From: an uncultured Bacilli bacterium
GTDB lineage: Bacteria; Bacillota_I; Bacilli_A; RF39; UBA660
Length of the DNA stretch: 64,000 nt
Assembly (NCBI GenBank): GCA_944329425.1
Contig: CALVIG010000002.1
Span: 593 to 64,592, forward strand
Direction of reading: 5' to 3'
Shown: positions 1,638 to 63,887 of the stretch, one piece after another
Numbering within the stretch: position 1 is the stretch's first letter
Layout: every line of letters starts with the position of its first letter
Program-made: the position numbers and the translations under genes
Notes under the pieces: model-generated
Told to the model about the DNA's origin: nothing
The model's input: the letters and a program-made list of their open reading frames with translations, nothing else
The model's database searches: none

Positions 1638-2342
1638 ATGAGATATTTAAAAATGTACTGGAAACAAATTGCGTCTTTTTCAGTAATAGGACTGATTTTA
1701 ATTTTAGGAGGTTATCTTTATTATGATAATAACAGTATTTCAACTTCTAGTGTTAAAAAACTATCGGTAGATAAAAAACAAGATATAAAAGATGATTTAT
1801 CTACGGTATTTGTTGATGTTAAAGGAGCGGTAAATAGTCCGGGAGTTTATGAATTAGACGAAGGTAAAAGGGTAATAGATGCCATTAATTTAGCAGGTGG
1901 TTTAACTGATAAAGCGGATACCATTAACATAAATTTAAGTAAAAAGTTAACGGATGAAATGTATGTAATAATATACACTAAAGACGAGATATATAATTAC
2001 AAGCAAAATAATGAAAGTGTTAATGACATAAAATGTGCTTCGATGGAATGTGTTTGTCCAGATGTTTCTAACGACGCTTGCATTAATAGTGCTAGTACTG
2101 GTAATTCTTCATCATCAAGTGAAGATGGTAACAAAGTAACTGATGATGATTCTAAAGTATCGATAAATAGCGCTACTAAAGAAGAATTGATGAAGCTTGA
2201 GGGTATAGGTGAAGTTAAAGCGGAAGCCATTATAAAATATAGACAAGAAAATGGTTCGTTTAAAAGCGTTGAAGAATTAAAAAACGTATCCGGTATAGGA
2301 GATGCTGTTTATGACAAAATAAAAGATAATATAATTGTTTAA
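1638..2342 (+). CDS. comEA: Competence protein ComEA (SLBB + tandem helix-hairpin-helix DNA-binding domain, N-terminal TM anchor)
   Basis: Track ORF 1623-2342. I prefer ATG at codon 6, which has an AAAGGAGG SD upstream. SLBB-like segment VFVDVKGAVNSPGVYEL. C-terminal HhH pair EELMKLEGIGEVKAEAII...VSGIGDAVYDKI. comEC follows immediately. Confidence 0.8.
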   Translation: MRYLKMYWKQIASFSVIGLILILGGYLYYDNNSISTSSVKKLSVDKKQDIKDDLSTVFVDVKGAVNSPGVYELDEGKRVIDAINLAGGLTDKADTININLSKKLTDEMYVIIYTKDEIYNYKQNNESVNDIKCASMECVCPDVSNDACINSASTGNSSSSSEDGNKVTDDDSKVSINSATKEELMKLEGIGEVKAEAIIKYRQENGSFKSVEELKNVSGIGDAVYDKIKDNIIV

Positions 2343-4348
2343 TGAATAAAAAATTAAATATAGTATTGTTTTTATTTTGTTTAATTTCTTTGATTAGAAC
2401 TACTATTATAATTATAAATGATAAAAATTTTTACTTAGAAGAGCAAAAGAGTATCGTTGGTGTTATAACTAACATAACAAAAGATGATGATAAAGTAGTT
2501 ATTGATGTAAAGCAAAAAGATAAATATAGAATAACTAAATATGAAAATATAAACTTTGAATTAGGGGATAGAGTAAGGGTAAAAGGAGTTTTTTCTACCC
2601 CAACAAATAATACCGTTTTTAATCTTTTTAATTACCGAAAATATCTTTTATCTAAAAACATAACCATGGTAAGTTATGATGCTAATTTGAATTTAATTTC
2701 TAAAAATAATAACGTTTTATACCGTTTAAAAAATAGTGTCATTAACCACGTGGAAAAGTACGAGTCATCAAATTATTTAAAAGCTTTTATTTTGGCAGAT
2801 ACTTCAGAGATAAGTAATGATGTAAAAGAAAGTTATAATATGATTGGTATAAGTCATCTTTTAGCTATATCAGGGATGCACGTGGGAGTTTTTTTATATA
2901 TTTTAAATTTATTTTTAAAAAAATATAAATTTAAAAACGTAGTAATTATTTTGTTTTTATTATTTTTTCTTTTTTTAACAGGTTTTCCTGAATCCTTATT
3001 GAGATGTGTTACTTTCTTTATTTTAAGTTTAATAAACAAAAAGTTTAAACTTAATGTAAGTGACATTAAATTAATTATTTTTTGTTGTTGTTTATTACTT
3101 TTATTAAACCCATATTTAGTATATAGCGTAGGATTTTTATTTTCTTTTACCATTACCTTTTTTATATTATTAGCTAGACCTTACCTAAAACATAAAAACT
3201 ATTTTAAAAAAATATTTTTTATGTCTTTAATTTGTTTTTTTGCATCACTCCCCATATTAGCAAATTATTTTTTTAAGATTAATTTTTTATCTCCTTTTTT
3301 AAACGTTTTTTTCATTCCTTTAGTTTCTATTATTGTTTTTCCGTTTAGCCTAATAACTTTTTTTATTCCTTTTTTAGATGGATTTTATGTAACAATAATA
3401 AAGTTTTTTGAATTTATTTGCGGACTTATAAGTAAAATAGACGTGTTATCTTTTTCAATTGCTAAACCAAACGTAGTAATGATATTGATTTACTATGTAT
3501 CATTATATTTAACGATTAAGGTTAATAAAAAGTGGATTGTTTTATTTTTAATGATTTTGATTATTAATTTAAATATGAGGTTTTTAATTATTAATCCATC
3601 ACTTACCTTTATAGATGTTGGTCAAGGCGATAGCACTATTATTATATTACCAGGGGGAAAAACGATTTTAATTGATACTGGTGGTAAATATATGAGTAAT
3701 TATTCTATAGCAAAAAATAAAATCATACCATATTTGAATTCCGTTGGAATAAATAAAATAAATGCTTTAGTTTTAACGCACGGAGATTACGACCATATGG
3801 GGGAAGCGGTTAACTTAATTAATAATATTAAGGTAGAAAAGGTAATACTAAATAATGATGAATATAATGATTTGGAATTAAATTTAATTAAACAATTAGA
3901 TAAGAAGCATATTCCTTACTATAAAGAAGTTAGTAAATTAAATATAGGTGAAAACAAATTATATTTTTTAAATGATAAAATACATGATGATGAAAATGAT
4001 AACTCAATTGTTGCTTACTTACAATTAAAAGATGTGAAAATATTGCTGATGGGTGATGCGGGGTTAAAGGTAGAAGAGGAAATTTTAAAAAAATATAATG
4101 TTAAAGATGTTGATGTTTTAAAAGTTGGCCATCATGGTAGTAAAACAAGTTCTGGTAAAACGTTTATAAATAACGTTAATCCTAAGTATGGAATAATATC
4201 GGTAGGTAAAAATAATAGATATGGTCATCCAAATAAAGAAGCATTAGATAATTTAAAAAACAGCACTATTTATAGAACTGATATAGATGGAAGTATTATA
4301 TTTAAAATTAAATATAAAAAAATAAAAATACATACGTGTCCGCCTTAA
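2342..4348 (+). CDS. comEC: DNA internalization competence protein ComEC/Rec2 (competence domain + metallo-beta-lactamase domain)
   Basis: 668 aa, polytopic N-terminal half, C-terminal MBL motif VLTHGDYDHMGE / HHGS. Start overlaps the comEA stop (TAATG). Confidence 0.85.
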   Translation: MNKKLNIVLFLFCLISLIRTTIIIINDKNFYLEEQKSIVGVITNITKDDDKVVIDVKQKDKYRITKYENINFELGDRVRVKGVFSTPTNNTVFNLFNYRKYLLSKNITMVSYDANLNLISKNNNVLYRLKNSVINHVEKYESSNYLKAFILADTSEISNDVKESYNMIGISHLLAISGMHVGVFLYILNLFLKKYKFKNVVIILFLLFFLFLTGFPESLLRCVTFFILSLINKKFKLNVSDIKLIIFCCCLLLLLNPYLVYSVGFLFSFTITFFILLARPYLKHKNYFKKIFFMSLICFFASLPILANYFFKINFLSPFLNVFFIPLVSIIVFPFSLITFFIPFLDGFYVTIIKFFEFICGLISKIDVLSFSIAKPNVVMILIYYVSLYLTIKVNKKWIVLFLMILIINLNMRFLIINPSLTFIDVGQGDSTIIILPGGKTILIDTGGKYMSNYSIAKNKIIPYLNSVGINKINALVLTHGDYDHMGEAVNLINNIKVEKVILNNDEYNDLELNLIKQLDKKHIPYYKEVSKLNIGENKLYFLNDKIHDDENDNSIVAYLQLKDVKILLMGDAGLKVEEEILKKYNVKDVDVLKVGHHGSKTSSGKTFINNVNPKYGIISVGKNNRYGHPNKEALDNLKNSTIYRTDIDGSIIFKIKYKKIKIHTCPP

Positions 4349-4619: not shown

Positions 4620-5231
4620 TTAAAATTTTCTGTATAATCCAATTGCTTTGCCTAAAATAACGCAATTTGGTAATATGATAGGTGACATTGTATCATTTTC
4701 TGGTTGCAACCTTATATGCGTTGGCTCCTTATAAAACGTTTTAAGGGTAACTTCGTTATCTAACGTCATTGCTACTACTATATCACCATTGCGTGCAACG
4801 TTTTGCCTTTGAACAATTACTATATCACCATCATATATTCCGGCATTTACCATGCTTTCTCCACTTACTTTTAAAGTGAATACTTCTTCTTTACTTGGAA
4901 TTAAATAAGCTGGTAAACTAAAAAATTCATTAGGTGTTTCAATGGCCTCTATCGGAGAACCCGCGGTTATTTTCCCAAGAAGTGGAACTTCAACTACGTC
5001 TTCGTTTAAATACTCGTTATTACCAACTATTTCTAAAGATCTGTATTTAGAATTGGTTTTTTTTATATAACCTTTATTTTCTAATGCGTTTATGTGAGAC
5101 TGAATGGTTGCGGGTGAATTAAGCCCAAGAGCACTACCTATTTCTCTTACTGCAGGTGGATATCCGTGCTTTGCAATGTAACTTTTTATGTAATCCAAAA
5201 CATCTTGTTGACGGTTTGTTAGTTTTTCCAT
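4620..5231 (-). CDS. lexA: LexA repressor
   Basis: 203 aa. N-terminal wHTH (RQQDVLDYI...GYPPAVREIG). C-terminal S24 peptidase with Ala-Gly cleavage site and Ser/Lys dyad (GESM...KTFYKE). GGAGG SD. Confidence 0.9.
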   Translation of the reverse strand: MEKLTNRQQDVLDYIKSYIAKHGYPPAVREIGSALGLNSPATIQSHINALENKGYIKKTNSKYRSLEIVGNNEYLNEDVVEVPLLGKITAGSPIEAIETPNEFFSLPAYLIPSKEEVFTLKVSGESMVNAGIYDGDIVIVQRQNVARNGDIVVAMTLDNEVTLKTFYKEPTHIRLQPENDTMSPIILPNCVILGKAIGLYRKF

Positions 5232-5283
5232 AAGTCCTCCTTTTTATTACAATTTAATAATAACACAGTTACTTTACATTGTC

Positions 5284-5334
5284 AAACAAATGTTCTATTA
5301 GATTATTGACACGTACATTTGTTCGTGATAAAAT
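5284..5334. promoter_or_regulatory. Two Cheo/SOS (LexA) boxes plus a consensus sigma-A promoter in the lexA divergent intergenic region
   Basis: AAACAAATGTTC (about 5284-5295) and CGTACATTTGTTCG (about 5312-5325) match the Bacillus LexA box CGAAC-N4-GTTCG with one mismatch each. The second box fills the 17-nt spacer of TTGACA (5306-5311) ... TAAAAT (5329-5334), which points rightwards. Confidence 0.6.
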
Positions 5335-5368
5335 TTAATTGTAAAAAAGCTAAATAAAAGGAGTGATT

Positions 5369-5515
5369 ATGATGAGATTATTAAAAGATTATAAAGGAGT
5401 AGCATTGATTTATATCATTCTTACAGTAGTAAATATTATATGGATAGTTGGTTATGAAAAACCAATCGAAAAGGCTCAGGTTGGAAACGAAAGAAACGTT
5501 GTTATAAATGCTTGA
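5369..5515 (+). CDS. LexA-regulated 48-aa single-pass membrane mini-protein (candidate SOS cell-division inhibitor, YneA/SosA-like role)
   Basis: MMRLLKDYKGVALIYIILTVVNIIWIVGYEKPIEKAQVGNERNVVINA. AAAGGAG SD 7 nt upstream. Sits directly downstream of the SOS-box promoter, divergent from lexA and upstream of tkt, exactly where yneA sits in B. subtilis. Not in the ORF track (<60 aa). Confidence 0.5.
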   Translation: MMRLLKDYKGVALIYIILTVVNIIWIVGYEKPIEKAQVGNERNVVINA

Positions 5516-5578
5516 TATTTTATTGATAAATATCTTTTTTTGTCTTATAATTACTTTATAAGAATAGGAAGGTTTTAT

Positions 5579-7531
5579 ATGAATGATGAAAAAGTTATAA
5601 GTGCTATTAAAGCACTTTCTATCGCAGAAATTTCTAAAGCAAAAAGTGGTCATCCTGGCATTGCTTTGGGAGCTGCTCCATTATTATACACTTTATATTG
5701 TAAGCACATGAATGTAGACGTAACCGATGATAAATGGATAAACAGGGATAAGTTCGTGTTATCAGCAGGACATGGTTCGGCGCTTTTATATGCGGTTTTG
5801 TACATGACCGGTTTTGATATTAGCATAAAGGATTTGAAGGACTTTAGACAGATTGATTCAAAAACACCTGGACATCCAGAAGTAAACGTAACTCCTGGAG
5901 TTGACATTTCAACAGGGCCTTTAGGTCAAGGTATAGCTACCGCGGTTGGAATGGCTGCATCACAAAAATATTTATCCAAAAAATTTAACGGGTTATTAGA
6001 TTATAATGTTTATGTTTTGTGTGGTGAAGGCGATTTGATGGAGGGAATAAGTTATGAGGCTTGTTCTTTAGCGGGAACATTAAAATTAGGTAACTTAATA
6101 GTTTTATATGACTCTAATAAAGTGACTTTAGATGGTAATGCTAACCAAAGTTTTAACGAAGATGTTTTAACGCGTTTTGATGCAATGGGATGGCATACTG
6201 ACGTGGTTTTGGATGGTGATAATTCAACCTTAATTGACATGGTTATTAGTAAGGCAAAGCGTATTACGGATAAGCCTTCGTTTATAGAGGTTAAAACAAC
6301 GATTGGAAAGGGATCAATTTTAGAAGGTACAAATAAAGTTCATGGGTCTTTTTTAACCAAGGAGGATATAAGACAATTAAAAGTTAAGCTTAACATAGAT
6401 ACTGATTTATTTAAAAACATAACAAGCTTAAGGCATGATTTAGCTAACTTTGTTAGAATAAGGGTCAACCATGAAAAGAAAAGATGGGAATCAAAATATA
6501 AGGCATACTTAAATTCTTGTGATGTAGACACAAAAAGATTTTTAGAATCTTTAAGGGAAGATAAAAGGTATGATATAACACGATTATTTAAAGACGTAAT
6601 GTTTGATGATGATGAACTAAGAAACGTAAACGGAAAAATAATGAATGTTATAGCTGATAATTATCCTGCGTTTTTAGGAGGAGCAGCGGATGTTTCTTCC
6701 TCTACAAAAACTTACTTGAAGAATTTTAGTGATTTTAATTCTGATAATTATTCTGGTAAAAATATCTGGTTTGGAGTAAGAGAACATGCTATGGGAGCTT
6801 TTATTAATGGTATGGCTTTGTCCGGGTTAAGACCGTTTGCTTCTACTTTCTTAGCTTTTAGTGATTATCTTAAACCTTCTATTAGAATGGCTAGTTTAAT
6901 GAACGTTCCTTCTGTTTTTGTATTTACTCATGATACTATTATGATTGGAGAAGATGGTCCTACCCATCAACCAGTAGAGCAACTTGCGATGTTAAGAAGT
7001 ATTCCTAATCATTACGTTTATAGACCTTGCGATGCTAACGAAATAATTGGTTCATGGCAAACTATTTTAAACAATGATAAACCATCTTCTATAATAATAT
7101 CTAGAAGTAAGTGTAAGAATTTATCTGTAACGGATGCTTTAAGCGTAAAGAAAGGTGCTTATATCGTAAGAAAAGAAAAGAGAAAGTTATTTGCAATTAT
7201 TATAGCAACTGGTTCAGAAGTTGCGTTAGCTATTGATATTGCGGAAAAATTATCTAAAAAAGGAATGGAAATAAGGGTAGTATCAATGCCTTGTATGGAA
7301 TTGTTCGAGGAGCAATCAAGTAGCTATAAAGAAGAAATACTTCCAATAGGTTATAAAACTTTTGTAATAGAAAGAGCCTCTAAATTTGGTTGGCACAAAT
7401 ACGTTTATAACGATAAATACATAATGGGTACGGATGAATTTGGTTATTCTGGAAAACCTAATGATGTTTTAGAGAAAATGAGATTAGATGATGATAGTAT
7501 TTTAAAAAAGATTGAAAAATTACTTAAATAA
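5579..7531 (+). CDS. tkt: Transketolase
   Basis: Track ORF 5540-7531. Start moved to the internal ATG (MNDEKVISAIKALS), which has a GGAAGG SD. TPP-binding motifs present. Same position relative to lexA as in B. subtilis. Confidence 0.9.
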   Translation: MNDEKVISAIKALSIAEISKAKSGHPGIALGAAPLLYTLYCKHMNVDVTDDKWINRDKFVLSAGHGSALLYAVLYMTGFDISIKDLKDFRQIDSKTPGHPEVNVTPGVDISTGPLGQGIATAVGMAASQKYLSKKFNGLLDYNVYVLCGEGDLMEGISYEACSLAGTLKLGNLIVLYDSNKVTLDGNANQSFNEDVLTRFDAMGWHTDVVLDGDNSTLIDMVISKAKRITDKPSFIEVKTTIGKGSILEGTNKVHGSFLTKEDIRQLKVKLNIDTDLFKNITSLRHDLANFVRIRVNHEKKRWESKYKAYLNSCDVDTKRFLESLREDKRYDITRLFKDVMFDDDELRNVNGKIMNVIADNYPAFLGGAADVSSSTKTYLKNFSDFNSDNYSGKNIWFGVREHAMGAFINGMALSGLRPFASTFLAFSDYLKPSIRMASLMNVPSVFVFTHDTIMIGEDGPTHQPVEQLAMLRSIPNHYVYRPCDANEIIGSWQTILNNDKPSSIIISRSKCKNLSVTDALSVKKGAYIVRKEKRKLFAIIIATGSEVALAIDIAEKLSKKGMEIRVVSMPCMELFEEQSSSYKEEILPIGYKTFVIERASKFGWHKYVYNDKYIMGTDEFGYSGKPNDVLEKMRLDDDSILKKIEKLLK

Positions 7532-7592: not shown

Positions 7593-8015
7593 ATGAGAGT
7601 ATATTACTTATTTAAAATTAATGATTCTTTTTCTAAGTTGTATCACAGCAAGACTTATTATTTATATAAGATATTAGAGCAGATTTCTGAATCCAGCAAA
7701 AATGATTTTATAATTTCATACAGGTTGTTTGAACAATTAGCGGTTGCATTTAATAAAGCCGAAGTAAATGGTAACATATATAAGCATTATTCTTCTAGTG
7801 AATATTACCGAAAAACGCTTAATAAGCACGTGTTAGATGATGGGGTGGAAAAAACAAAACTTACCGTTTATAACACTTACGTTAAGATTAGAACTAACAA
7901 AAATATAACGGAATTTTTTAAGATACTAGAAAAAGAAAAAAACGTTTTTGTTTGTGATTTTAATAATAAAGATTATTTTTGGCTTAGTAAAGTAACGTCA
8001 AAAAGTCTTGTATAA
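7593..8015 (+). CDS. sirA: Sporulation inhibitor of replication SirA (YneE) homologue
   Basis: 140 aa. N-terminus [11 protein letters not shown] and C-terminus [14 protein letters not shown] resemble B. subtilis SirA (MERHYYTYLIKEE ... MDFNSKRYGWLNPV). Located right after tkt as in B. subtilis. Confidence 0.6.
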
Positions 8016-13802: not shown

Positions 13803-13869
13803 GTAACCAATATTAGAAACCACCATAGAATACTATGGTGGTTTTTTGAATGTTATTTTAGATATTATT

Positions 13870-14190
13870 ATGATTAATAACGTTTTAACGAAGTATTTTA
13901 AACGAGATATTTATAGTATGTTTTTAGATGATTATTGTTTTGAATATTATAGAATATTAAAACTTATTTATCCTGATTGTAAGATGGTTATAGAAAACAA
14001 TAAAGATCATTGTGCATCACTTATAATGGGTAATGTTTATGATGTAACCGGAATAAGGGATGGTAGTGATTTTTTTATAGCGGATACTTTTTACGAAAAT
14101 TATGTTTATAGCTTTTATAATAAATTTAACGAAGAAGTAAGAAACGATTTAAATAATTATATTGTTGGAAAAGTAAAAGTAAAAAAATAG
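13870..14190 (+). CDS. Hypothetical protein (about 106 aa)
   Basis: Track ORF 13846-14190, which begins with TTG inside the upstream terminator T-run. The first ATG is at codon 9. No clear SD, so this is a weak call. Confidence 0.3.
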   Translation: MINNVLTKYFKRDIYSMFLDDYCFEYYRILKLIYPDCKMVIENNKDHCASLIMGNVYDVTGIRDGSDFFIADTFYENYVYSFYNKFNEEVRNDLNNYIVGKVKVKK

Positions 14191-17724: not shown

Positions 17725-18918
17725 ATGATAAATAAAAAAATATTAGTTTTGTTTTTGGTGATTTTTATTACTTCTTTTATTTCTCTTGCTATCTATCTTA
17801 ACGTTAGAATAGTTGATGATAATACTGGGTTTATTCTTAAAGATAACCTTGATGTATCAGTATATAGTAATTTAAAAATAAGTGATTTAATAAAAAGTAT
17901 GGATGGTAAATTATTAACTGATGAAATTATTAATACTGATTCATTAGGATTAAAAAAGGTTTCTTTCATCTACGTTAATAAAGAAAATAAGAAAAGAAGA
18001 GGAACTTTTAACGTAACCGTAGTTGATGATGAAAAGCCTTTGGTTTGGTTATCTAATAGCTATAGTATAAAGGTAAATAGCGACGTTAACCTAGAAGATT
18101 CTATTATGTGTGCAGATAATTATGATAGTAATCCTAGTTGTAAAATAATTGGTGATTATGATTTAAACAAGGTTGGTAGTTATGACCTTTCTTATGTTGC
18201 AACTGATTCGAGTAATAATAAAAATAAGGTTGATTTTACTTTATACGTTTATGAACCAAAAGAAGATGGTGATGAAAAAAACGTTAGTGTTACTAATTTT
18301 GATGAGGTTTTATCTAGCTATAAAACTAAAAAAAGTGAGGTTGGCATAGACGTTTCAAAATGGCAAGGCAAAATTGATTTTAATAAGGTAAAAGAAGCAG
18401 GAGCTAGCTTTGTTATGATTAGGGTTGGCTCTCAAAACGGGGTTAATGGTGAGTATGTAATTGATCCTTACTTTGAAACCAACGTTAGCTCTGCTATTAA
18501 AAGTGGATTAAAAGTGGGTGTTTATTTTTATTCATACGCAGACAGTAAAAAAGAAGCTAAAAAACAAGCAAAGTGGGTAATTGAAAAAATTAAGAAATAT
18601 CAAATTACCTTGCCAGTTGCCTTTGATTGGGAATGTTATTCTTCGTTTAACGAAATGGATATTAGTTTGTTTGGGTTAAACGAAATAGCAGATTCATTTT
18701 TAAAAGAGGTAGAAAAAAATGGATATGAAGTTATGTTATACGGAAGTAAAAATTATTTGAATAGTGTATGGAAGTATAATAAAAACGACGTTTGGTTAGC
18801 GCATTATAGTGAAAAAACTGATTACCAAAATGATTTTGTTATGTGGCAGCTATGTCAAAATGGTGTTATTGATGGTATAGAAAAAATGGTTGATATTAAC
18901 GTTTTATATCATGATTAA
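17725..18918 (+). CDS. Membrane-anchored GH25 muramidase (lysozyme) with N-terminal Ig-like repeats
   Basis: N-terminal TM helix. C-terminal GH25 signature (GIDVSKWQGKIDFNKVKEAGASFVMIRVG ... DWECYSS ... NGVIDGIEKMVDINVLY). Confidence 0.75.
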   Translation: MINKKILVLFLVIFITSFISLAIYLNVRIVDDNTGFILKDNLDVSVYSNLKISDLIKSMDGKLLTDEIINTDSLGLKKVSFIYVNKENKKRRGTFNVTVVDDEKPLVWLSNSYSIKVNSDVNLEDSIMCADNYDSNPSCKIIGDYDLNKVGSYDLSYVATDSSNNKNKVDFTLYVYEPKEDGDEKNVSVTNFDEVLSSYKTKKSEVGIDVSKWQGKIDFNKVKEAGASFVMIRVGSQNGVNGEYVIDPYFETNVSSAIKSGLKVGVYFYSYADSKKEAKKQAKWVIEKIKKYQITLPVAFDWECYSSFNEMDISLFGLNEIADSFLKEVEKNGYEVMLYGSKNYLNSVWKYNKNDVWLAHYSEKTDYQNDFVMWQLCQNGVIDGIEKMVDINVLYHD

Positions 18919-22259: not shown

Positions 22260-22778
22260 ATGTATAAGGAGATAGTTACTAAAGCTGTTATAGGAAAGGG
22301 TAAAAAATATTTTAAAAACACCTATAATCTTTTAACGGAAAACAACGCTAATACAATTTTGGGCTGCTGGGTAATTAATCACGAATTTAAAGGCACGGTA
22401 AATGGTGATAAGGTTGTTATAGATGGTAATTTTGACGTTAATATATGGTATTCATATGATGATGATAAAAAAACTACCGTAGCTAACAAAAACATATCTT
22501 ATAGTGAAGTTGTTAGCGTAAAAACCAAAACTGGAACTTCTTTGGCTGGAAGTGATATAATCGTAAGAGCGTTAAAGCAACCAAGTTGTAGTAATGTTAC
22601 AGCAAAGGATGATGTAATAGAGTTTGATATAGAAAAAGAGTTAGGAATAGAAGTAGTAAATGATGAAAAAGTAAAAATTGCGATAGAAGAAGATGAGGAA
22701 CCATGGGACACAATCGATGATGATACACAAGAAGTAGAAAAAGCAATTGATGAAGAAGTTAAAGAGGATTTTATTTAG
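22260..22778 (+). CDS. cotE: Outer spore coat morphogenetic protein CotE
   Basis: YKEIVTKAVIGKGKKY..ILGCWVINH..NIWYSY...LKQPSC...acidic C-terminal tail. Collinear with B. subtilis CotE (YREIITKAVVAKGRK..ILGGWIINH..VWYSY..LQQPNC..acidic tail). Confidence 0.75.
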   Translation: MYKEIVTKAVIGKGKKYFKNTYNLLTENNANTILGCWVINHEFKGTVNGDKVVIDGNFDVNIWYSYDDDKKTTVANKNISYSEVVSVKTKTGTSLAGSDIIVRALKQPSCSNVTAKDDVIEFDIEKELGIEVVNDEKVKIAIEEDEEPWDTIDDDTQEVEKAIDEEVKEDFI

Positions 22779-37307: not shown

Positions 37308-37347
37308 AATTAGGAACATACGTTCTTAATTTTTTTTAATAAAATAA

Positions 37348-37419: not shown

Positions 37420-39279
37420 ATGTCTAAAAGACAATTTAAAGCGGAATCTAAAAAATTATTAGATTTAATGGTTAATTCTATTTATACTAACAAAGATATT
37501 TTTTTAAGGGAGCTAATATCAAACGCTAATGATGCATTAGATAAATTATATTATGAATCATTAACTAATAAAAAATTAAAAGTAGATAAAAAAGAATTAA
37601 AAATAGTACTTGATATTGATAAAGAAAAAAGATTACTTACGATAGAAGATAATGGTATTGGTATGAGCAAAGAAGAGCTTTGTGAAAACTTAGGTACCAT
37701 TGCAAAAAGTGGTTCTTTAGCGTTTAAAGAGGCTTTAGAAAAAAAAGATAAAGTTAATATTATTGGGCAATTTGGTGTTGGTTTTTACTCATCGTTTATG
37801 GTTGCAGATAAAGTAATTGTTGAAAGTAAAAAAGCTGGTAGCGAAGAAGCTTATAAATGGGTATCAGAAGGCGCTGATGGCTATGAAATTACAAAGTCTA
37901 ATAAAGATACTTACGGAACTAAAATAACGCTTCATATTAAAGAAAAAACAAAGGATGATGATTTTGATAAGTACTTAGAAGAATTTAGCATAATGGGTCT
38001 TGTTAAAAAATATTCTGATTACGTAAGTTATCCAATAACCATATTTAATTATGATGAAGAAAAAAAGGAAAAGAAAGAATCAGATCCAATAAATAGTATG
38101 ATACCTTTATGGAAGAAAAATAAAAACAAAATAAAAGAGGAAGATTATTATAATTTCTATCAAGAAAAATTCTTTGATTATGCAAAACCACTTAAAGTTA
38201 TTCATACTAAAGCAGAAGGGTTAGTAAGTTATGACGCACTTTTATTTATTCCATCTAATCCACCATATGATTTTTATACAAAGGAATATAAAAAGGGGCT
38301 TGAATTATATTCAAATGGAGTATTAATAATGGATAAGTGTGAAGATTTACTTCCTGATTATTTAAGTTTTGTAAAGGGTGTTGTTGATTCTCCAGATTTA
38401 TCTCTTAATATATCAAGAGAAATATTACAACAAAGTAAACAGCTAAAACTTATTGCTAAAAACATAGAAAAGAAAATATTAAAAGAATTAAATGATATGC
38501 TAGAAAACGAAAGAGATAAGTATGAAGAATTCTTTAAGACGTTTGGTGTTAATATAAAATATGGTGTTTATGATAACTATGGAGCTAAAAAAGATGATCT
38601 AAAAGATTTAATTATATTTTATTCTTCTAAAGAAAAGAAAATGGCTACTTTAAAAGAATACGTATCAAGAATGAAAAAAGATGATGATACAATTTATTAT
38701 GCATGTGGTGAAACAACGGATAAGATAGATATGATGCCACAAGTTGAAAGTCTAAAGGAAAGAAAAAAAGAAGTGCTATATTTAACTGATTATGTTGATG
38801 AATTTGTTTTAAAAATGCTTGATAAATATGATGATAAGAAATTTGTTAACGTATCATCTAACGACTTTGATTTATCAAGTGAAGAAGAAAAAGAAGAGTT
38901 AAAGAAGAAAAACGAAGATTCTAAAGAAATGTTCGATCTAATGAAAAAAGAATTGGGTGAAGAAGTTTCTTCTATAAGATTTACAAACAAACTAAAGAAT
39001 CATCCTTTATGCTTAACAAGTGAAGGTAATATTACCGTTGAAATGCAAAAAGTAATTAACGCAATGCCAACTGATGAACACGTTGATGCTAAGTTAGTAT
39101 TAGAAATAAATGAGAACCATCCAATAGCACAAAAGATAAAAGATTTATATCAAAATGATAAAGATACATTAAAAAAATATACAAAAATTTTATATGATGA
39201 AGCAAGACTAATTGAAGGGTTACCAGTTAATAATCCAACTGAATTAAGTTCATTAGTATGTGAAATCTTATCTAAATAA
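37420..39279 (+). CDS. htpG: Chaperone HtpG (Hsp90)
   Basis: 619 aa. GHKL N-domain (LISNANDALDK, GTIAKSG). Typical HtpG length. Confidence 0.9.
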   Translation: MSKRQFKAESKKLLDLMVNSIYTNKDIFLRELISNANDALDKLYYESLTNKKLKVDKKELKIVLDIDKEKRLLTIEDNGIGMSKEELCENLGTIAKSGSLAFKEALEKKDKVNIIGQFGVGFYSSFMVADKVIVESKKAGSEEAYKWVSEGADGYEITKSNKDTYGTKITLHIKEKTKDDDFDKYLEEFSIMGLVKKYSDYVSYPITIFNYDEEKKEKKESDPINSMIPLWKKNKNKIKEEDYYNFYQEKFFDYAKPLKVIHTKAEGLVSYDALLFIPSNPPYDFYTKEYKKGLELYSNGVLIMDKCEDLLPDYLSFVKGVVDSPDLSLNISREILQQSKQLKLIAKNIEKKILKELNDMLENERDKYEEFFKTFGVNIKYGVYDNYGAKKDDLKDLIIFYSSKEKKMATLKEYVSRMKKDDDTIYYACGETTDKIDMMPQVESLKERKKEVLYLTDYVDEFVLKMLDKYDDKKFVNVSSNDFDLSSEEEKEELKKKNEDSKEMFDLMKKELGEEVSSIRFTNKLKNHPLCLTSEGNITVEMQKVINAMPTDEHVDAKLVLEINENHPIAQKIKDLYQNDKDTLKKYTKILYDEARLIEGLPVNNPTELSSLVCEILSK

Positions 39280-46437: not shown

Positions 46438-46514
46438 GGATGCTTAGCTCAGTTGGTTAGAGCACCTGCCTTACAAGCAGGGGGTCATAGGTTCGAGTCC
46501 TATAGCGTCCACCA
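46438..46514 (+). tRNA. tRNA-Val (TAC)
   Basis: Cloverleaf with GGATGCT/AGCGTCC acceptor, anticodon loop CTTACAA, encoded CCA. Confidence 0.85.
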
Positions 46515-46519
46515 TTATT

Positions 46520-46595
<76 letters not shown>

Positions 46596-46598
46596 CTT

Positions 46599-46682
46599 GG
46601 GGAGATAGCGAAGTGGTTAAACGCGGCAGACTGTAAATCTGTTCCTTCGGGTTCGGTGGTTCGAATCCACCTCTCCCCACCA
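46599..46682 (+). tRNA. tRNA-Tyr (GTA)
   Basis: GGGGAGA/TCTCCCC acceptor, anticodon loop ACTGTAAAT, long variable arm, CCA. Confidence 0.85.
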
Positions 46683-46690
46683 CTTAAGAT

Positions 46691-46765
46691 TGCCTCGTCG
46701 CCAAGTGGTAAGGCATCAGACTTTGACTCTGACATGCGCAAGTTCGAATCTTGCCGAGGCAACCA
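46691..46765 (+). tRNA. tRNA-Gln (TTG)
   Basis: U1-A72 acceptor (TGCCTCG/CGAGGCA) typical of bacterial tRNA-Gln, anticodon loop CTTTGAC, CCA. Confidence 0.8.
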
Positions 46766-46782
46766 AAATTTATTTGTAGTAT

Positions 46783-46858
46783 GTCCTGTTAGCTCAGTAG
46801 GTAGAGCATTTGACTTTTAATCAAAGGGTCATGCGTTCGAGTCGCATACAGGACACCA
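46783..46858 (+). tRNA. tRNA-Lys (TTT)
   Basis: GTCCTGT/ACAGGAC acceptor, anticodon loop CTTTTAA, CCA. Confidence 0.85.
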
Positions 46859-46860
46859 TT

Positions 46861-46949
46861 GCCCGAGTGGCGGAATTGGTAGACGCACAGGACTTAAAAT
46901 CCTGCGAGATTCAACCCTCGTGCCGGTTCAAGTCCGGCCTCGGGCACCA
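46861..46949 (+). tRNA. tRNA-Leu (TAA)
   Basis: GCCCGAG acceptor, anticodon loop CTTAAAA, long variable arm, CCA. Followed by a terminator hairpin CTAACC..GGTTAG plus T-run (about 46960-46985). Confidence 0.85.
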
Positions 46950-47054
46950 CTGGAAATTAGCTAACCTTTTGGTTAGTTTTTTTGTTTTAATAAACTTTAA
47001 TAAAAATAACACAATAATTTAATAATATTCATTTATACTTAAAGTAGAAAGTGA

Positions 47055-47288
47055 GGTGAATATTATACGAGAATAAAAATAATAGGATTTAACTGTAGCA
47101 ATGGAATAAAATTAAGAAAAATGGTAGAAAGGGCTATAGAACAATATGATGGTTCTGTAGAAATAGAATTACAAGATAATAAAGATAATAAAATAAAAAA
47201 CGTTCCTGGCTTGGTTATTAATGGTAATTTAGTAAGCGAAGGAAAAGTTTTAACGGTAAGAGAAATAACAAAACTTATGAATTGTTAA
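47055..47288 (+). pseudogene. Degenerate TM0996/MTH895-type thioredoxin-fold mini-protein ORF (no AUG start, CxxC replaced by CSNG)
   Basis: In-frame peptide after TGA: GEYYTRIKIIGFNCSNGIKLRKMVERAIEQYDGSVEIELQDN..NVPGLVINGNLVSEGKVLTVREITKLMNC. It is collinear with about 77-aa TM0996-family redox proteins (MKIxILGTGCxKC...PALVINGxVKxxGxVPxxEEI). The only ATG is at codon 28 (47121). The second Cys of CxxC is Gly. Confidence 0.35.
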
Positions 47289-47423
47289 ATATAGATATTA
47301 TATGAAAAGGCGGTGAATAATATGTAGTTGGTTTAAAGGATATCAAACTTTTTGATATACCAAGTGACCAACGAATTATATTTCTATTAGCAAGTACTTT
47401 TGTTACTTGCTTTTATTTTGGTG

Positions 47424-47452
47424 TTGACAAATAAAAAGTTCGATGCTATAAT
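47424..47452 (+). promoter_or_regulatory. Consensus sigma-A promoter for the tRNA-Ser/tRNA-fMet pair
   Basis: TTGACA-17 nt-TATAAT, about 55 nt upstream of tRNA-Ser. Confidence 0.6.
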
Positions 47453-47509
47453 TTTATTGCTATTTAATTGTTATACATGTTGTTTTATAGCATATAATAA
47501 TTATGTCAT

Positions 47510-47602
47510 GGAGGAATACCCAAGTCTGGTTGAAGGGACCGGTCTTGAAAACCGGGAGGTCGGGCAACCGGCGCGGGGGTTCGAATCCCTCTTCCTCCGC
47601 CA
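47510..47602 (+). tRNA. tRNA-Ser (TGA)
   Basis: GGAGGAA/TTCCTCC acceptor, anticodon loop CTTGAAA, long variable arm, CCA. Confidence 0.85.
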
Positions 47603-47612
47603 CTTATAATAT

Positions 47613-47689
<77 letters not shown>

Positions 47690-49744: not shown

Positions 49745-49995
49745 TCTTTATGAGCGAAGAAAAGGAAAAGTAATTAAACAAAACTTTAAAGAGAGCTGAT
49801 GGTGGTGAAATATCAGTAAGATAGTTTAATGAAAGAACACCTTGGAGCTTCTTACCGAAAGTTTTAATTAGTAGGCTAAGACGGAAGATAACCCGTTAAA
49901 GTATCTTAAAGTGACTATTTTATAAATAGTAAACTGGGTGGTACCACGGATATTAACAGTTATTCGTCCCTATGGGATGGATAGCTGTTTTTTAA
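49745..49995 (+). ncRNA. T-box riboswitch leader of aspS
   Basis: AGAGA/GNUGG stem I elements (aaagAGAGctgatGGTGGtgaaa). Conserved T-box sequence AAACTGGGTGGTACCACGG (about 49931-49949). Terminator hairpin plus T-run just before the aspS SD. Confidence 0.7.
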
Positions 49996-50021: not shown

Positions 50022-51764
50022 ATGAGTACGTATAGAACAAATACATGTGGGGAACTAACAATAAAAGATTTAGATAAGAAGGTTGTATTAGCTGGTTTTG
50101 TATCAACAATAAGAGACCATGGTGGTGTTATGTTCGTGGACTTAAGAGATCATTATGGAACAACACAAATAGTAGTTCATGATGATTCAATGCTAAAAGG
50201 AGTATCAAAAGAAACCGTAATTAAGGTTACTGGTACGGTTGTTAAAAGAGATGAAGAAACAATTAATAAAAAGCTTTCAACAGGAGAAATAGAAGTAGTA
50301 ATAGACTCTCTTGAGTTATTATCTGATACTGCTAAAGCATTGCCATTTGAAGTAGATGAATCTAAAAAAGTATCAGAGGATGTTAGATTAAAATATAGAT
50401 TCTTGGATTTAAGAAATCCAAAAGTTCACGAAAACATTGTTTTAAGATCAAAGGCATTTAACTTTTTAAGAAACATGATGCAAGAATTAGGATTCTTAGA
50501 AGTACAAACTCCAATTCTTACATCATCATCTCCAGAAGGTGCTAGAGACTTTATAATTCCATCAAGAAAACATAAGGGAAAGTTTTACGCACTTCCTCAA
50601 GCACCACAACAATTTAAACAACTTTTAATGGCATCAGGTTTTGATAGATATTTCCAGTTAGCTCCATGTTTTAGAGATGAAGATGGAAGAGCTGATAGAT
50701 TAGTTGGTGAATTTTATCAATTAGATATGGAAATGGCTTTTGCAGACCAAGAAGATATAATGGAAGTTGCTGAAAAAGTATATCCAGCTTTCTTTAAAGA
50801 ATTTGGTAAAAGACGAGTAACCGAAGGTCATTTTAAAAGAATCCCTTATAATGAGTCAATGCTTAAATATGGCACTGATAAACCAGATTTAAGAAACCCA
50901 CTTGAAATAATTGATATTAGTGAAGTATTTACTGAAACAGAATTTAAACCATTTAGAGGTGCAATTGTTCGTGCAATTAAAGTTGATGACATCGCATCTA
51001 AACCAAATAGTTGGTTTAATGAAGTAGTTGATTATGCTAAATCAATTGATATGCCAGGTATTGGGTATATTAGCGTAATGGAAGATAAAACACTTAAAGG
51101 TCCAATTGATAAGTTCTTAACAGAAGAAGATAGAACGGCTTTATTTGAAAAAGCAGACTTGAAAGTTGGTAGCGTATTATTCTTTATCGCAGATAAAAGA
51201 CGTGATGTAGTAACTCGTAATGCTGGTTTAATAAGAACAGAATTAGGACGTAAGTTAGATTTAATGGATCATAATTTATTTGAATTTTGCTTTATAACAG
51301 ATATGCCAATGTATGAAATAAGTGAAATAACAGGAAAACTTGATTTTATGCATAATCCATTTAGTATGCCAAGAGGTGGAATGAAGGCTTTGGAAAACGA
51401 AGACCCATTATCTATTTATGCAGATCAATTTGACGTTGTATGTAATGGTGTTGAATTAGTATCAGGAGCTGTTAGAAATAACAGACCAGAAGTACTTTTA
51501 AAAGCATTTGAACTTGCTGGTTATACTGAAGAAGATATTAAAAAGAAATTTAGTGCTTTATATACAGCATTTAAATATGGTTGCCCACCACACGTAGGTA
51601 TGGCTTTAGGTATTGATCGTGCACTTATGATGTTGTTAGAAGAAGATAACGTAAGAGAAACCGTTGCGTTCCCATTAAACCAAAATGGTGAAGATGTACT
51701 TACTGGTACTCCAAACGAAGTTACTGAATTACAATTAAGAGAAACTCATATTAAGTTAAGATAG
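50022..51764 (+). CDS. aspS: Aspartyl-tRNA synthetase (bacterial type)
   Basis: 580 aa. Class II motifs (FRDE, QLDME, GxGxDR), with GAD insertion domain. Confidence 0.9.
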   Translation: MSTYRTNTCGELTIKDLDKKVVLAGFVSTIRDHGGVMFVDLRDHYGTTQIVVHDDSMLKGVSKETVIKVTGTVVKRDEETINKKLSTGEIEVVIDSLELLSDTAKALPFEVDESKKVSEDVRLKYRFLDLRNPKVHENIVLRSKAFNFLRNMMQELGFLEVQTPILTSSSPEGARDFIIPSRKHKGKFYALPQAPQQFKQLLMASGFDRYFQLAPCFRDEDGRADRLVGEFYQLDMEMAFADQEDIMEVAEKVYPAFFKEFGKRRVTEGHFKRIPYNESMLKYGTDKPDLRNPLEIIDISEVFTETEFKPFRGAIVRAIKVDDIASKPNSWFNEVVDYAKSIDMPGIGYISVMEDKTLKGPIDKFLTEEDRTALFEKADLKVGSVLFFIADKRRDVVTRNAGLIRTELGRKLDLMDHNLFEFCFITDMPMYEISEITGKLDFMHNPFSMPRGGMKALENEDPLSIYADQFDVVCNGVELVSGAVRNNRPEVLLKAFELAGYTEEDIKKKFSALYTAFKYGCPPHVGMALGIDRALMMLLEEDNVRETVAFPLNQNGEDVLTGTPNEVTELQLRETHIKLR

Positions 51765-60565: not shown

Positions 60566-60641
60566 GGTTCCGTGGTGTAGGGGTTAACACGTCTGCCTGT
60601 CACGCAGAAGATCGCGGGTTCAAATCTCGTCGGAACCGCCA
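60566..60641 (+). tRNA. tRNA-Asp (GTC)
   Basis: GGTTCCG/CGGAACC acceptor, anticodon loop CTGTCAC, CCA. Confidence 0.85.
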
Positions 60642-60654
60642 TTTTTTTTTAATT

Positions 60655-60730
60655 GGCTCTGTAGCTCAGTCGGTAGAGCACAGGACTGAAAATCCTGGTG
60701 TCGGCAGTTCGATCCTGCCCGGAGCCACCA
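60655..60730 (+). tRNA. tRNA-Phe (GAA)
   Basis: GGCTCTG acceptor, anticodon loop CTGAAAA, CCA. Terminator hairpin follows (about 60743-60775). Confidence 0.85.
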
Positions 60731-60868
60731 TTTATAAAAAAGGCAAAAGATTACGTGGTTAATCTTTTTTTAATAGGAAGATTGTAACGGTAACTTAAAT
60801 AATTTAATATAATAGTATTGAAAAATAATTTTTAAAGTGTTATAATTAGCCATGTCAAACGAAAGTTT

Positions 60869-60945
60869 GCGCTCGTAGCTCAGCTGGATAGAGCACTTGG
60901 CTACGAACCAAGGGGTCAGGGGTTCGAATCCCTTCGAGCGCGCCA
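60869..60945 (+). tRNA. tRNA-Arg (ACG)
   Basis: GCGCTCG/CGAGCGC acceptor, anticodon loop CTACGAA, CCA. Confidence 0.85.
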
Positions 60946-60995
60946 CTTTATGTATTGACTTTATTTTGGTTAGTATGATATAATCATATTGCTTT

Positions 60996-61072
60996 CGGAA
61001 AGTAGCACAATTTGGTAGTGCACGCGGTTTGGGACCGTGAGGTTGCAGGTTCAAATCCTGTCTTTCCGACCA
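60996..61072 (+). tRNA. tRNA-Pro (TGG)
   Basis: CGGAAAG/CTTTCCG acceptor, anticodon loop TTTGGGA, CCA. Own promoter TTGACT-18 nt-TATAAT (about 60955-60984). Terminator hairpin after it (about 61084-61112). Confidence 0.8.
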
Positions 61073-61142
61073 TTTGAAATTAACTATTCATTAATTTGAA
61101 TAGTTTTTTATTTATGTATGTTATAATATAGTAGGTGGTTTT

Positions 61143-61667
61143 ATGAATGCTGTTAAACTTGATACTCTTAGTCTTTGTAGATATGAACCGCGTTATACCG
61201 ATTTTAAAAATTCATTCAAAAACGATTCGAAATCAAGGTTCATTAATTCAGTTGCCGAAAGATTAGAATCTTCTATGTATGGTGATGGTTTTACTTTTCA
61301 AAGTGCATACGTAGTTCTAGATGAAAATATTCCTGTTGGATACGTTTATTTATCTTCGGTACATGATGATGAGGTCTTCTTGGAGGTTTCCGTTTTAAAG
61401 GAGTGCAGAGGCAAGAGGATAACTAATGAAATATGCGATTACTTGTTTACTAATCATAACATTAAGAGCGTAAAACTAGACATTGATCCAAGTAATAAGG
61501 CAAGTCTTATGAACGCGGAATCTTGTGGGTTTGAATTTGATGAAGAGGATTTTGAATCAAGAAATTTTATTGGGGAAATGGTTTTTTATAAAGAAAGTGA
61601 TTGTTATGTTTCAAAAAGGGAGGAAGTAAACAATGAAGCTTGTTTCTTGGAACGTTGCGGGTTTTAG
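61143..61667 (+). CDS. GNAT-family N-acetyltransferase (putative)
   Basis: 174 aa. Motif-A-like CRGKRIT. 3' end overlaps the xth start by about 35 nt. Confidence 0.4.
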   Translation: MNAVKLDTLSLCRYEPRYTDFKNSFKNDSKSRFINSVAERLESSMYGDGFTFQSAYVVLDENIPVGYVYLSSVHDDEVFLEVSVLKECRGKRITNEICDYLFTNHNIKSVKLDIDPSNKASLMNAESCGFEFDEEDFESRNFIGEMVFYKESDCYVSKREEVNNEACFLERCGF

Positions 61668-62391
61668 AGCTTGTTTAAAAAAAGGTTTTGAAGATTTTTT
61701 TTATGAGTGTGATGCTGATATATACTGTTTACAGGAAGTTAAAGCAGAGTTATCACAAATAGACTTTAATCCAAAGGATTATTATTGTTATGTTAATTCT
61801 GCTGAAAAAAAAGGATATTCTGGTACTTTGATTTATACTTTATATAAACCGCTTAATGTGTCATATGGTTTAGGTATAGATGAACACGATCATGAAGGTA
61901 GGGTAATAACTTTAGAGTTCGAAGAATATTATCTAGTTAACCAGTACGTTCCTAACGTAAAAAGGGATTTATCAAGACTAGATTATAGAATGACCTGGGA
62001 AGATGATTTAAGAAAGTATTTAAAACGTTTAGAAGAAAAAAAGCCGGTCGTGGTTTGTGGTGATTTTAACGTTGCCCATACTGAAATGGACATAAAAAAC
62101 GCTAAAGCAAACGTAGGTAACGCGGGTTTTACTTATGAAGAAAGAAACAAGTTCTCACTTTTGTTAGAAAGTGGATTTATAGATACTTATAGGTATTTTA
62201 ACCCAGATAAAAAAGACGCTTATTCTTGGTGGAGTTACATGGGAAAAGCAAGGGAAAATAACGTTGGATGGAGGATAGATTATTTTTTAGTTTCAAAAAG
62301 TATTATTGATAAGGTATCTAATCCAATTATTTATAGTGATGTTTACGGAAGTGATCATTGTCCTATCGGGATAGATTTGAAGCTTAAATAG
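61633..62391 (+). CDS. xth: Exodeoxyribonuclease III (Xth/ExoA, AP endonuclease)
   Basis: MKLVSWNVAGFRA start, QEVK, catalytic SDHCP near the C-terminus. 252 aa. Confidence 0.9.
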   Translation: MKLVSWNVAGFRACLKKGFEDFFYECDADIYCLQEVKAELSQIDFNPKDYYCYVNSAEKKGYSGTLIYTLYKPLNVSYGLGIDEHDHEGRVITLEFEEYYLVNQYVPNVKRDLSRLDYRMTWEDDLRKYLKRLEEKKPVVVCGDFNVAHTEMDIKNAKANVGNAGFTYEERNKFSLLLESGFIDTYRYFNPDKKDAYSWWSYMGKARENNVGWRIDYFLVSKSIIDKVSNPIIYSDVYGSDHCPIGIDLKLK

Positions 62392-62402
62392 TTTCTTTTT
62401 AT

Positions 62403-62479
62403 GCTCACGTAGCTCAGTTGGATAGAGTGTTACCCTCCGAAGGTAAAGGTCATGAGTTCGACTCTCATCGTGAGCGCCA
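62403..62479 (+). tRNA. tRNA-Arg (CCG)
   Basis: GCTCACG/CGTGAGC acceptor, anticodon loop CTCCGAA, CCA. Confidence 0.85.
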
Positions 62480-62483
62480 TTAT

Positions 62484-62560
62484 CGGGAAATAGCTTAATT
62501 TGGTAGAGCACTACGTTCGGGACGTAGAGGTTGCAGGTTCAAATCCTGTTTTCCCGACCA
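62484..62560 (+). tRNA. tRNA-Pro (CGG)
   Basis: CGGGAAA/TTTCCCG acceptor, anticodon loop TTCGGGA, CCA. Confidence 0.85.
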
Positions 62561-62651
62561 TTTATTAAAAAATTATTTTGCTTGATATTATCCGACATAA
62601 TTCTACTTGGTGTTGGTATTATTATAAAAAAACACAACAAGGAGGAAAGTT

Positions 62652-63089
62652 ATGGATATAAATCAAGAAAACGTACAAGAATTATTTAATTTTATAGAAA
62701 CAAAATATTTAGTTAGAAAAACCCGTAATAGTAATAAATTCGTTGAGTTAGAAGTTTATGGGTTTAGTGGTACTTATATGGTGCCAACGGGGTGCCTAAT
62801 AATTAGGTATGATAAGGTTAATGAGCAGCTAGAAGTTGATGATTTTAATTCAAAAAATGATGAAGTTGTAAAAGAATTGATTAGTGATATTAAAACAATA
62901 TTAAATGATGAATATGTTAGAAAATATAGTTTTAGAAAAAATCCAAAAATGATAATAACACATTTTAGTTTAACTGATAAGGATGAATATGTTAAATTTT
63001 TTGATGATTCTATAAAAGAAGGTTCCATATTAGAAGTAGATGATTCGAATAAGTCTTTAGTTAAAATAGGAAAACAATGGCAAAAATAA
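62652..63089 (+). CDS. Hypothetical protein (145 aa)
   Basis: ORF with GGAGGA SD between two tRNA blocks. No recognisable domain. Confidence 0.4.
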   Translation: MDINQENVQELFNFIETKYLVRKTRNSNKFVELEVYGFSGTYMVPTGCLIIRYDKVNEQLEVDDFNSKNDEVVKELISDIKTILNDEYVRKYSFRKNPKMIITHFSLTDKDEYVKFFDDSIKEGSILEVDDSNKSLVKIGKQWQK

Positions 63090-63176
63090 TGCCATTGTTT
63101 TTTTATTTGAATATTATATTAGTAAAGATGCATCTTTTAAATATGGGGGAGATTTGGCTTGAGTGATATCTTTAGT

Positions 63177-63470: not shown

Positions 63471-63583
63471 AAAGAGCTTTAGCTCTTTTTATAATAATTA
63501 AATTAAAAAAATTAAATTAGGTATTGCTTTTTTATTTATATTTTGATATTATTAATATGCATTTAAACAAATGCATAATTTTT

Positions 63584-63660
63584 GGGGCTTTAGCTCAGCT
63601 GGCTAGAGCGCCTCGCTTGCACCGAGGAGGTCAAGGGTTCGAATCCCTTAAGCTCCACCA
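63584..63660 (+). tRNA. tRNA-Ala (TGC)
   Basis: G3-U70 identity pair in the GGGGCTT/AAGCTCC acceptor, anticodon loop CTTGCAC, CCA. Confidence 0.85.

Positions 63661-63810: not shown

Positions 63811-63887
<77 letters not shown>

Follow-up and report, generated by a model that had tools for sequence, protein, structure and literature searches.

Analysis of a 64,000-nucleotide stretch of contig CALVIG010000002.1 (hereafter the window), which derives from an uncultured Bacilli bacterium of the RF39 lineage, has revealed a very small gene divergent from lexA. This mini-gene, located at 5369/5372-5515 on the plus strand, encodes a peptide built of one transmembrane (TM) helix and a short polar tail, and its promoter contains a LexA-type box. 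We lean towards the view that the product is an SOS-induced small membrane inhibitor of cell division, a functional analogue of YneA and SosA. The regulatory half of this SOS-checkpoint account, judged from the sequence, is very likely to be right, and the proposed inhibition of division by the peptide rests on positional and architectural analogy. All the elements that the original prediction had described here are present, namely a short lexA-divergent open reading frame (ORF) preceded by a Shine-Dalgarno (SD) sequence and accompanied by two boxes.

The 137-nucleotide (nt) region leading up to ATG 5369 consists of two back-to-back sigma-A-type promoters, each overlapped by a Cheo-type box. 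The mini-gene promoter (5306-5334, plus strand) is composed of (i) a -35 element TTGACA at 5306-5311; (ii) a 17-nt spacer; (iii) the extended -10 element TGaTAAAAT, ending at 5334. The spacer is filled by box 2 (5312-5325, CGTACATTTGTTCG), which carries one mismatch. The placement of box 2 in the spacer had been recognised correctly at the outset, but the promoter had also been called perfect, and the promoter scan gives it 11 of 12 hexamer matches together with the TG of an extended -10; it is kept in relatives. The opposing lexA promoter (5257-5285, minus strand) has its -35 TTGACA at 5285-5280, a 17-nt spacer and the -10 element TGnTATTAT at 5262-5257. It likewise shows 11 of 12 hexamer matches plus the TG, and its hexamers are kept across 20 aligned control regions. 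Box 1 (5283-5296, CAAACAAATGTTCT), with two mismatches to CGAAC-N4-GTTCG, overlaps the lexA -35, its imperfect half-site sharing bases with the minus-strand TTGACA, and is the presumed autoregulatory operator of lexA. Both boxes contain ACAWWTGTTC, the third occurrence of which in the window lies inside rny.

The SD sequence AAAGGAG (5357-5363, plus strand) is located upstream of both ATG 5369 and ATG 5372, and AAGGAG is kept in the alignment. Translation up to the stop codon TGA (5513-5515) gives 48 amino acids (aa) from the former start codon or 47 aa from the latter. The 48-aa frame that had been proposed is there, but the product is probably 47 aa long, because most homologues start at a methionine aligned with ATG 5372, which lies 8 nt after GGAG. 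The mini-gene mRNA shows no unusual folding (z = +0.49; 135 of 200 shuffles fold at least as well), and the SD is exposed behind a leader of about 30 nt. An Rfam search of 5150-5700 for riboswitches, small RNAs and leaders gave no match.

The adjacent lexA coding sequence (4620-5231, minus strand) specifies a protein of 203 aa with the Pfam domains LexA_DNA_bind (E 6.8e-26) and Peptidase_S24 (E 3.3e-32). RecA-stimulated self-cleavage of LexA needs an Ala-Gly site, a serine and a lysine. The translation contains the cleavage site Ala90-Gly91 in the motif GKITAGSP and the dyad Ser126 (in GESM) and Lys164 (in TLKTFY). As a separate observation on this gene, the stretch 5264-5279 (TTACTTTACATTG), in the lexA promoter spacer just past box 1, is almost invariant in 20 relatives even though it belongs neither to a box nor to a hexamer.

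The helix of the peptide is encoded by 5396-5452 (residues 10-28, GVALIYIILTVVNIIWIVG), a hydrophobic core of 19 residues with a mean Kyte-Doolittle hydropathy of 2.42. It is followed by 20 tail residues (5453-5512, YEKPIEKAQVGNERNVVINA) that are predicted to be extracytoplasmic. The architecture of one TM helix plus a short polar tail, as originally described, is reproduced in the AlphaFold2 model built with the family alignment as input: a single helix covers residues 2-28 (block-mean pLDDT 94 for residues 11-20 and 88 for 21-30), and the last 20 residues are without regular structure. The N-terminal flank holds three K/R against one D/E, so an N-in, C-out orientation is predicted by the positive-inside rule; the tail holds three of each. 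Within the close family (alignment A1) the invariant positions are K6-Y15 (KDYKGVALIY), T19, W25 and V38..E41-R42-N43.V45.N47, and N22 and Y29 are shared by at least 90% of the sequences. The tail motif KQV..ERNVV.N[AV] is conserved as well. With 100 degrees per residue, an arc of about 120 degrees takes in Y15, T19, N22, W25 and Y29, a conserved face which may serve a specific helix-helix contact.

Comparison of its variants indicates that the gene is protein-coding and under purifying selection: pairwise dN/dS has a median of 0.28, no indel shifts the frame, and 20 of 20 variants keep the ORF open. Databases contain 21 homologues with 62-98% identity, all of 46-48 aa except for start or stop miscalls, and 23 clusters, all of 42-66 aa, came out of a profile search through 1.84 billion representative proteins. 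No family match for the peptide was obtained in Pfam (E<=1), NCBIfam or PHROG, in line with the earlier statement that it has no LysM domain, and IMG/VR viral contigs scanned with alignment A1 contained no relative. A PDB match (9hjm_I, E 0.021) was disregarded as a TM-like stretch, and there was otherwise no meaningful PDB relative. Contigs that carry the identical peptide number 150 and reach 1.07 Mb in length, and in public records the peptide is named only "hypothetical protein"; no paper describing the mini-peptide family was found in the literature.

Conservation beside lexA, which the original prediction had set beforehand as a test, is complete in the loci that were fetched. The sample of the window family comprised 31 loci with 20 distinct peptides from 13 GTDB species genomes, and in 31 of 31 lexA and the peptide gene diverge, with a spacing that hardly varies. 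With 44-aa relatives (L032 and L033) included, the gene is divergent from lexA and both boxes are present in 33 of 33. One carrier is Candidatus Aphodocola excrementigallinarum, whose LexA is 91% identical to that of the window and which has been placed in order RF39, family CAG-433 (PMC8035907). Evolution of the peptide is much faster than that of its neighbours: relative to the window sequence it shows 37-72% identity where LexA has 85-93% and Tkt 73-84%; SosA is similarly spread, with 25-60% identity among staphylococci (PMC6851548). A 44-aa peptide (MTFIKAYKE...VVYLK) is found in the same arrangement in lineages where the identity of LexA is 74-75%. The locus L029 is without tkt, and sirA and yneF come next after its peptide gene, with lexA and both boxes retained. 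The neighbourhood of L034 (GCA_016648615.1, obtained through the metagenome scan described below) is wholly different, and what lies downstream is a glycosyltransferase. Even so, the locus has a TM peptide of 48 aa, preceded by the promoter TTGACA-CGAACATATATTCG-TAT-TAGAAT, which has the same design with a better box. Because the peptide and boxes persist at these two loci independently of tkt, the mini-gene is tied to lexA and not to tkt. Its one constant neighbour is lexA, no other partner gene being conserved alongside.

A wider metagenome scan, with a LexA 74% identical to that of the window as the query, yielded 80 lexA loci of related uncultured Bacilli, 72 of them with enough upstream DNA. 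A complete, SD-preceded, divergent ORF with a single TM segment was found in 48 of the 72 (26-62 aa, median 47; 42 distinct sequences). In 34 of these 48 a GAAC-N4-GTTC box with at most one core mismatch lies 30-75 nt upstream of the start codon, in most cases 43-53 nt, and several boxes are perfect. A common plan is seen in nearly all the peptides: the N-terminus is basic, a single helix follows, then a polar or acidic stretch, and a hydrophobic-x-hydrophobic motif lies close to the C-terminal end. The window peptide appears to belong, as one branch, to a set of lexA-adjacent mini-peptides that is widespread in uncultured gut Bacilli and has no name. In 9 of the 72 loci polA is directly divergent from lexA, and at L070, L073 and L075 only a 26-aa TM stub stands beside lexA, its promoter lacking a box in L070 and L075.

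The three most distant loci (L108, L110 and L112), with LexA about 50-53% identical to the query, carry YneA-like proteins of 101-131 aa composed of a TM segment and LysM. At these and at L109 the genes occupy the lexA-divergent slot and 3-5 Cheo boxes are found in the control region. LysM was detected in the proteins of L108, L112 and L109, which served as a positive control for the LysM search; the L109 ORF, of 53 aa, ends inside the LysM motif and may represent a yneA that has been cut short. At their C-termini the YneA-like proteins read VAVNQ or VAIEQ, similar to the mini-peptides, whose ends are of the VVINA type. Comparison by hhalign linked the window family A1 to a second group A4 (90.6%) and A4 to a third group A5 (93.2%), with 28% for A1 and A5, but short TM-rich profiles can inflate such scores and the links are suggestive only. 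As a partial control, A1, A4 and A5 gave a probability of 2-3% against the YneA-like alignment A6. Common ancestry of the mini-peptide groups is therefore possible, and by these profiles they are without detectable relation to YneA. The earlier claim that the peptide resembles neither YneA nor SosA agrees with these low values and with the 42-66 aa range of the profile matches. No yneA-like gene was found elsewhere in the window, the only sequence checked for one.

Several observations weigh against the account of a LexA-controlled division inhibitor. Small TM peptides that are SOS-induced and have another role exist, TisB and DinQ being examples. Within the window CGAAC-N4-GTTCG occurs at 11 sites with up to two mismatches against 7.1 expected, and the 12-mer core GAAC-N4-GTTC at 13 sites with up to one mismatch against 12.3 expected. 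Box 1 and box 2 each have one mismatch in this core. Two Cheo-type boxes are indeed present as had been claimed, but to call them near-consensus was generous in view of their mismatches and of counts close to chance. Other SOS promoters that might define the LexA motif of the host were sought in the window and none was found; recA, uvr and dinB genes are absent from its 64 kb. Some related lineages are without the peptide, lexA there facing polA, a glycosyltransferase or another gene, and others have the 26-aa stub only, so the function is dispensable or replaceable. Finally, the TM domain of YneA on its own localises to the division site and causes no block, LysM being needed (PMC13396833). 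Inhibition by a peptide that has no extracytoplasmic domain is thus not simply assumable, and since the YneA helix alone only localises, the 20-residue tail would have to supply the inhibitory activity.

As the match counts within the window alone are not above chance, the significance of the boxes rests on their position and conservation. Among the 20 aligned control regions 11 of 14 columns are invariant in box 1 and 8 of 14 in box 2, against 0 of 9 in the linker that separates the boxes and 0 of 21 in the leader (5'UTR). Both -35 hexamers and both boxes are invariant or nearly so, and in box 2 the right half GTTCG is invariant while the left half reads C-R-W-A-C. At this position related lineages have boxes that are better or perfect, for example CGAACAAGTGTTCG and CGAACATTGGTTCG. 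The LexA motif of Firmicutes is well defined, and autoregulation of LexA through such sites is the rule (PMC3998124). Control of the mini-gene by LexA is, on this pattern of sequence conservation, well supported. Perfect GAAC-N4-GTTC sites occur in the window inside a KH-protein gene (23330) and upstream of htpG (37314). The second of these forms a separate observation: the perfect palindrome 37313-37326 (GGAACATACGTTCT) directly follows the stop codon of the upstream gene, about 37 nt before the -35 of htpG (37420-39279). The htpG promoter is a perfect TTGACA-17-TATAAT, and the palindrome is oddly placed for its repression.

The proposed mechanism would proceed as follows. In the undamaged cell LexA dimers would occupy box 1 and box 2 and keep both divergent promoters shut. 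After DNA damage, active RecA would stimulate self-cleavage of LexA at Ala90-Gly91, and both promoters would open. The short, unstructured and SD-led mRNA would then give rise to a 47-aa bitopic peptide, with its basic N-terminus inside, the TM helix, and the 20-residue tail outside. If YneA, SosA and SidA are taken as models, the helix may dock onto the septal peptidoglycan synthase (an FtsW-type SEDS protein with a penicillin-binding protein, PBP, of class B), and the face Y15-T19-N22-W25-Y29 would be the docking surface. Septation would be delayed until repair is complete. The conserved tail, which ends in hydrophobic-x-N-A/V, may either interfere with the extracytoplasmic part of the septal complex or act as a degron; in the latter case a C-terminal processing protease would remove the peptide and so reset the checkpoint. 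No Peptidase_S41 (CtpA-type) gene was found within the window. Wall genes of the window include a SEDS protein (420-1562), a PBP5-like carboxypeptidase, a MurJ-like protein and a PASTA kinase, and from this gene content the host possesses the machinery on which such an inhibitor would act. The SEDS protein, a member of the FtsW/RodA/SpoVE family, is a candidate target of the peptide. Its gene lies together with comEA (1623-2342) and comEC (2342-4348) just upstream of lexA.

Downstream of the mini-gene, tkt (5579-7531, plus strand) has a promoter of its own (5523-5551, plus strand; TTGATA, 17 nt, TATAAT), which is conserved and separate from the SOS switch. No conserved minus-strand promoter was found in or after the ORF, the tkt promoter being the only conserved one downstream. 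A plus-strand terminator-like site between the mini-gene stop codon and tkt was sought and none was found, so SOS transcripts may read into tkt; such read-through is possible as an effect secondary to the switch. Downstream of the SOS promoter lies also a gene for SirA, the sporulation inhibitor of replication (7593-8015, E 2.7e-12), and no terminator was detected between them.

Among the rival explanations, the one ranked highest, and still unlikely, is that the peptide is a LexA-controlled regulator of some other membrane partner (a transporter, protease or kinase, or a protein of competence or sporulation) during damage. Many bacterial small membrane proteins regulate larger ones (review PMC12648545), the conserved polar helix residues T19, N22 and W25 point to a specific partner whose identity they leave unspecified, and comEA, comEC and the sporulation-type genes for SirA and CotE are nearby. 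However, no partner gene has been conserved together with the peptide, and every characterised gene in the lexA-divergent slot of Gram-positives is a division inhibitor (PMC6851548). That slot also speaks against the improbable idea that the peptide lowers the proton-motive force and promotes dormancy or tolerance without acting on the divisome, as a peptide of the TisB/DinQ type would. The resemblance to these E. coli type I toxins is real, as they too are under LexA control, are shorter than 50 aa and have a single TM helix; DinQ is described as an SOS-regulated single-TM peptide (PMC3567139). In contrast to them, the gene of the window lacks a conserved antisense promoter, although an undescribed small RNA may exist, and neither an Rfam match nor a structured leader accompanies it, the mRNA being unstructured with its SD exposed. 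A motif-bearing polar tail of 20 residues is moreover unexpected for a pure pore-forming or depolarising peptide, and the gene has a core position beside lexA.

The remaining alternatives carry far less weight. It is very unlikely that the LexA promoter serves to boost tkt, along with sirA and yneF, after damage and that the ORF is a leader or bystander: read-through is likely in the absence of a terminator-like site, but tkt is served by a conserved promoter of its own, selection acts on the amino-acid sequence of the peptide, and L029 and L034, where the peptide and boxes persist and tkt is absent, contradict it. Just as little credence is given to the proposal that the conserved 14-mers are bound by another factor or kept as promoter sequence, so that the gene is not SOS-regulated. 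The core mismatch in each box, window counts equal to chance and the perfect site near htpG, outside the obvious SOS genes, fit such a proposal. Yet both sites share ACAWWTGTTC, are placed over a -35 and in a spacer, positions at which repressors act, and stay invariant while their flanks drift, and the better boxes of related lineages together with the rule of LexA autoregulation (PMC3998124) argue for LexA. The least probable option is a secreted signalling peptide, in which the hydrophobic stretch would act as a signal sequence and the tail be set free. The order of basic N-terminus, hydrophobic segment and polar C-terminal part would suit secretion, but the 19-residue stretch has TM length and is followed by no small-x-small cleavage motif (IVGY-EKP), and its residues show more conservation than a signal peptide calls for.

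A broader joint reading of all these loci, built on the preferred one of an SOS-induced division inhibitor, is doubtful as a whole and is offered tentatively. Under it, the LysM-type YneA would have given way, throughout RF39 and in neighbouring uncultured Bacilli, to a single fast-evolving superfamily of LexA-controlled, TM-only peptides of about 47 aa, which would inhibit the FtsW-type synthase through helix contact and a short tail. The peptides would then be natural minimal SEDS inhibitors, and their shared hydrophobic-x-hydrophobic C-terminus would be a protease degron that resets the checkpoint. With no terminator in between, the SOS transcript might also raise SirA and couple the division block to a block of replication initiation. 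If the division-inhibitor account is correct, a very small new family is added to the SOS division inhibitors, and a large group of uncultured gut Bacilli with reduced genomes would have retained the lexA-adjacent checkpoint but lost the peptidoglycan-binding domain required by YneA. With its 47 residues, such a natural inhibitor could serve as a compact probe of the way in which the FtsW-type synthase is shut off, and it would bear directly on the 2026 proposal that these inhibitors have FtsW as their common target. Genes of less than 60 aa beside lexA are missed or left unnamed, and here the database label is "hypothetical protein" only.

Further features of the window concern the host. It is a small-genome RF39-type bacterium with a GC content of 29% that encodes SirA and the outer spore coat protein CotE (22260-22778, E 2.8e-41). 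RF39 has been predicted to keep peptidoglycan and sporulation (PMC10868615), which fits the SEDS, PBP5-like, MurJ-like, PASTA-kinase, CotE and SirA genes found here. Ribosomal protein L20 (33259-33825) is 188 aa long, with a C-terminal extension that matches Rho_N (residues 157-186, E 2.7e-8), and a T-box leader (49748-49974) precedes the aspartyl-tRNA synthetase gene (50022-51764). The window contains 18 tRNAs at the Rfam gathering score, with several clusters among them (46438-47686; 60566-63976). Two genes among the housekeeping genes encode a phage YunG-like protein (13846-14190) and a 397-aa protein (17725-18918), the GH25 lysozyme domain of which follows about 200 uncharacterised N-terminal residues.

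The known SOS division inhibitors of Gram-positives are small single-TM proteins with an outside C-terminus, encoded next to lexA and showing little mutual homology (PMC6851548). Among them DivS of Corynebacterium glutamicum and ChiZ (Rv2719c) of Mycobacterium tuberculosis are likewise lexA-adjacent, LexA-regulated and single-TM, and DivS is also without LysM (PMC6851548); unlike the peptide of the window they are actinobacterial, larger and unrelated in sequence, and ChiZ has LysM. SidA of Caulobacter crescentus (29 aa) is likewise very small, essentially TM-only and SOS-induced, but it belongs to another phylum, its gene is not lexA-adjacent and there is no sequence relation. It binds FtsW and blocks late division without an extracytoplasmic domain, so inhibition by so small a peptide is possible (PMC6851548, PMC13396833). 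The TM helix of YneA binds TM7 of FtsW, and SosA, ChiZ and SidA are predicted to target FtsW too, SidA on the other side of TM7 (PMC13396833).

YneA of Bacillus subtilis and Listeria monocytogenes shares with the mini-gene product the position divergent from lexA, the LexA boxes in a common control region, an N-terminal single TM helix and a C-terminus predicted outside. The Listeria protein had been presented as an unrelated inhibitor, but it is related to B. subtilis YneA (PMC6851548). The synteny with the yneA region that had been proposed holds as well: tkt, SirA/YneE and the UPF0154 protein YneF follow the mini-gene, in the gene order of the B. subtilis neighbourhood (tkt, sirA/yneE, yneF), with yneB and ynzC absent from the window locus. 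In contrast to the YneA-like proteins of about 100 aa, the peptide has no LysM domain (PF01476; Pfam E<=1) and its tail comprises 20 residues. SosA of Staphylococcus resembles it in being divergent from lexA and in having one TM helix on the N-terminal side, an extracellular C-terminal part and no LysM. The conservation immediately behind the helix and at the very C-terminal end, together with rapid divergence, also matches the description of SosA (PMC6851548). The two differ in length (47 aa versus 77 aa), and they are set apart by the absence of profile matches above 66 aa (E<=0.001) and of an NCBIfam match, without a direct comparison with the SosA sequence. The peptide represents a new sequence family, and by analogy its function is most likely of the type already known from YneA and SosA.

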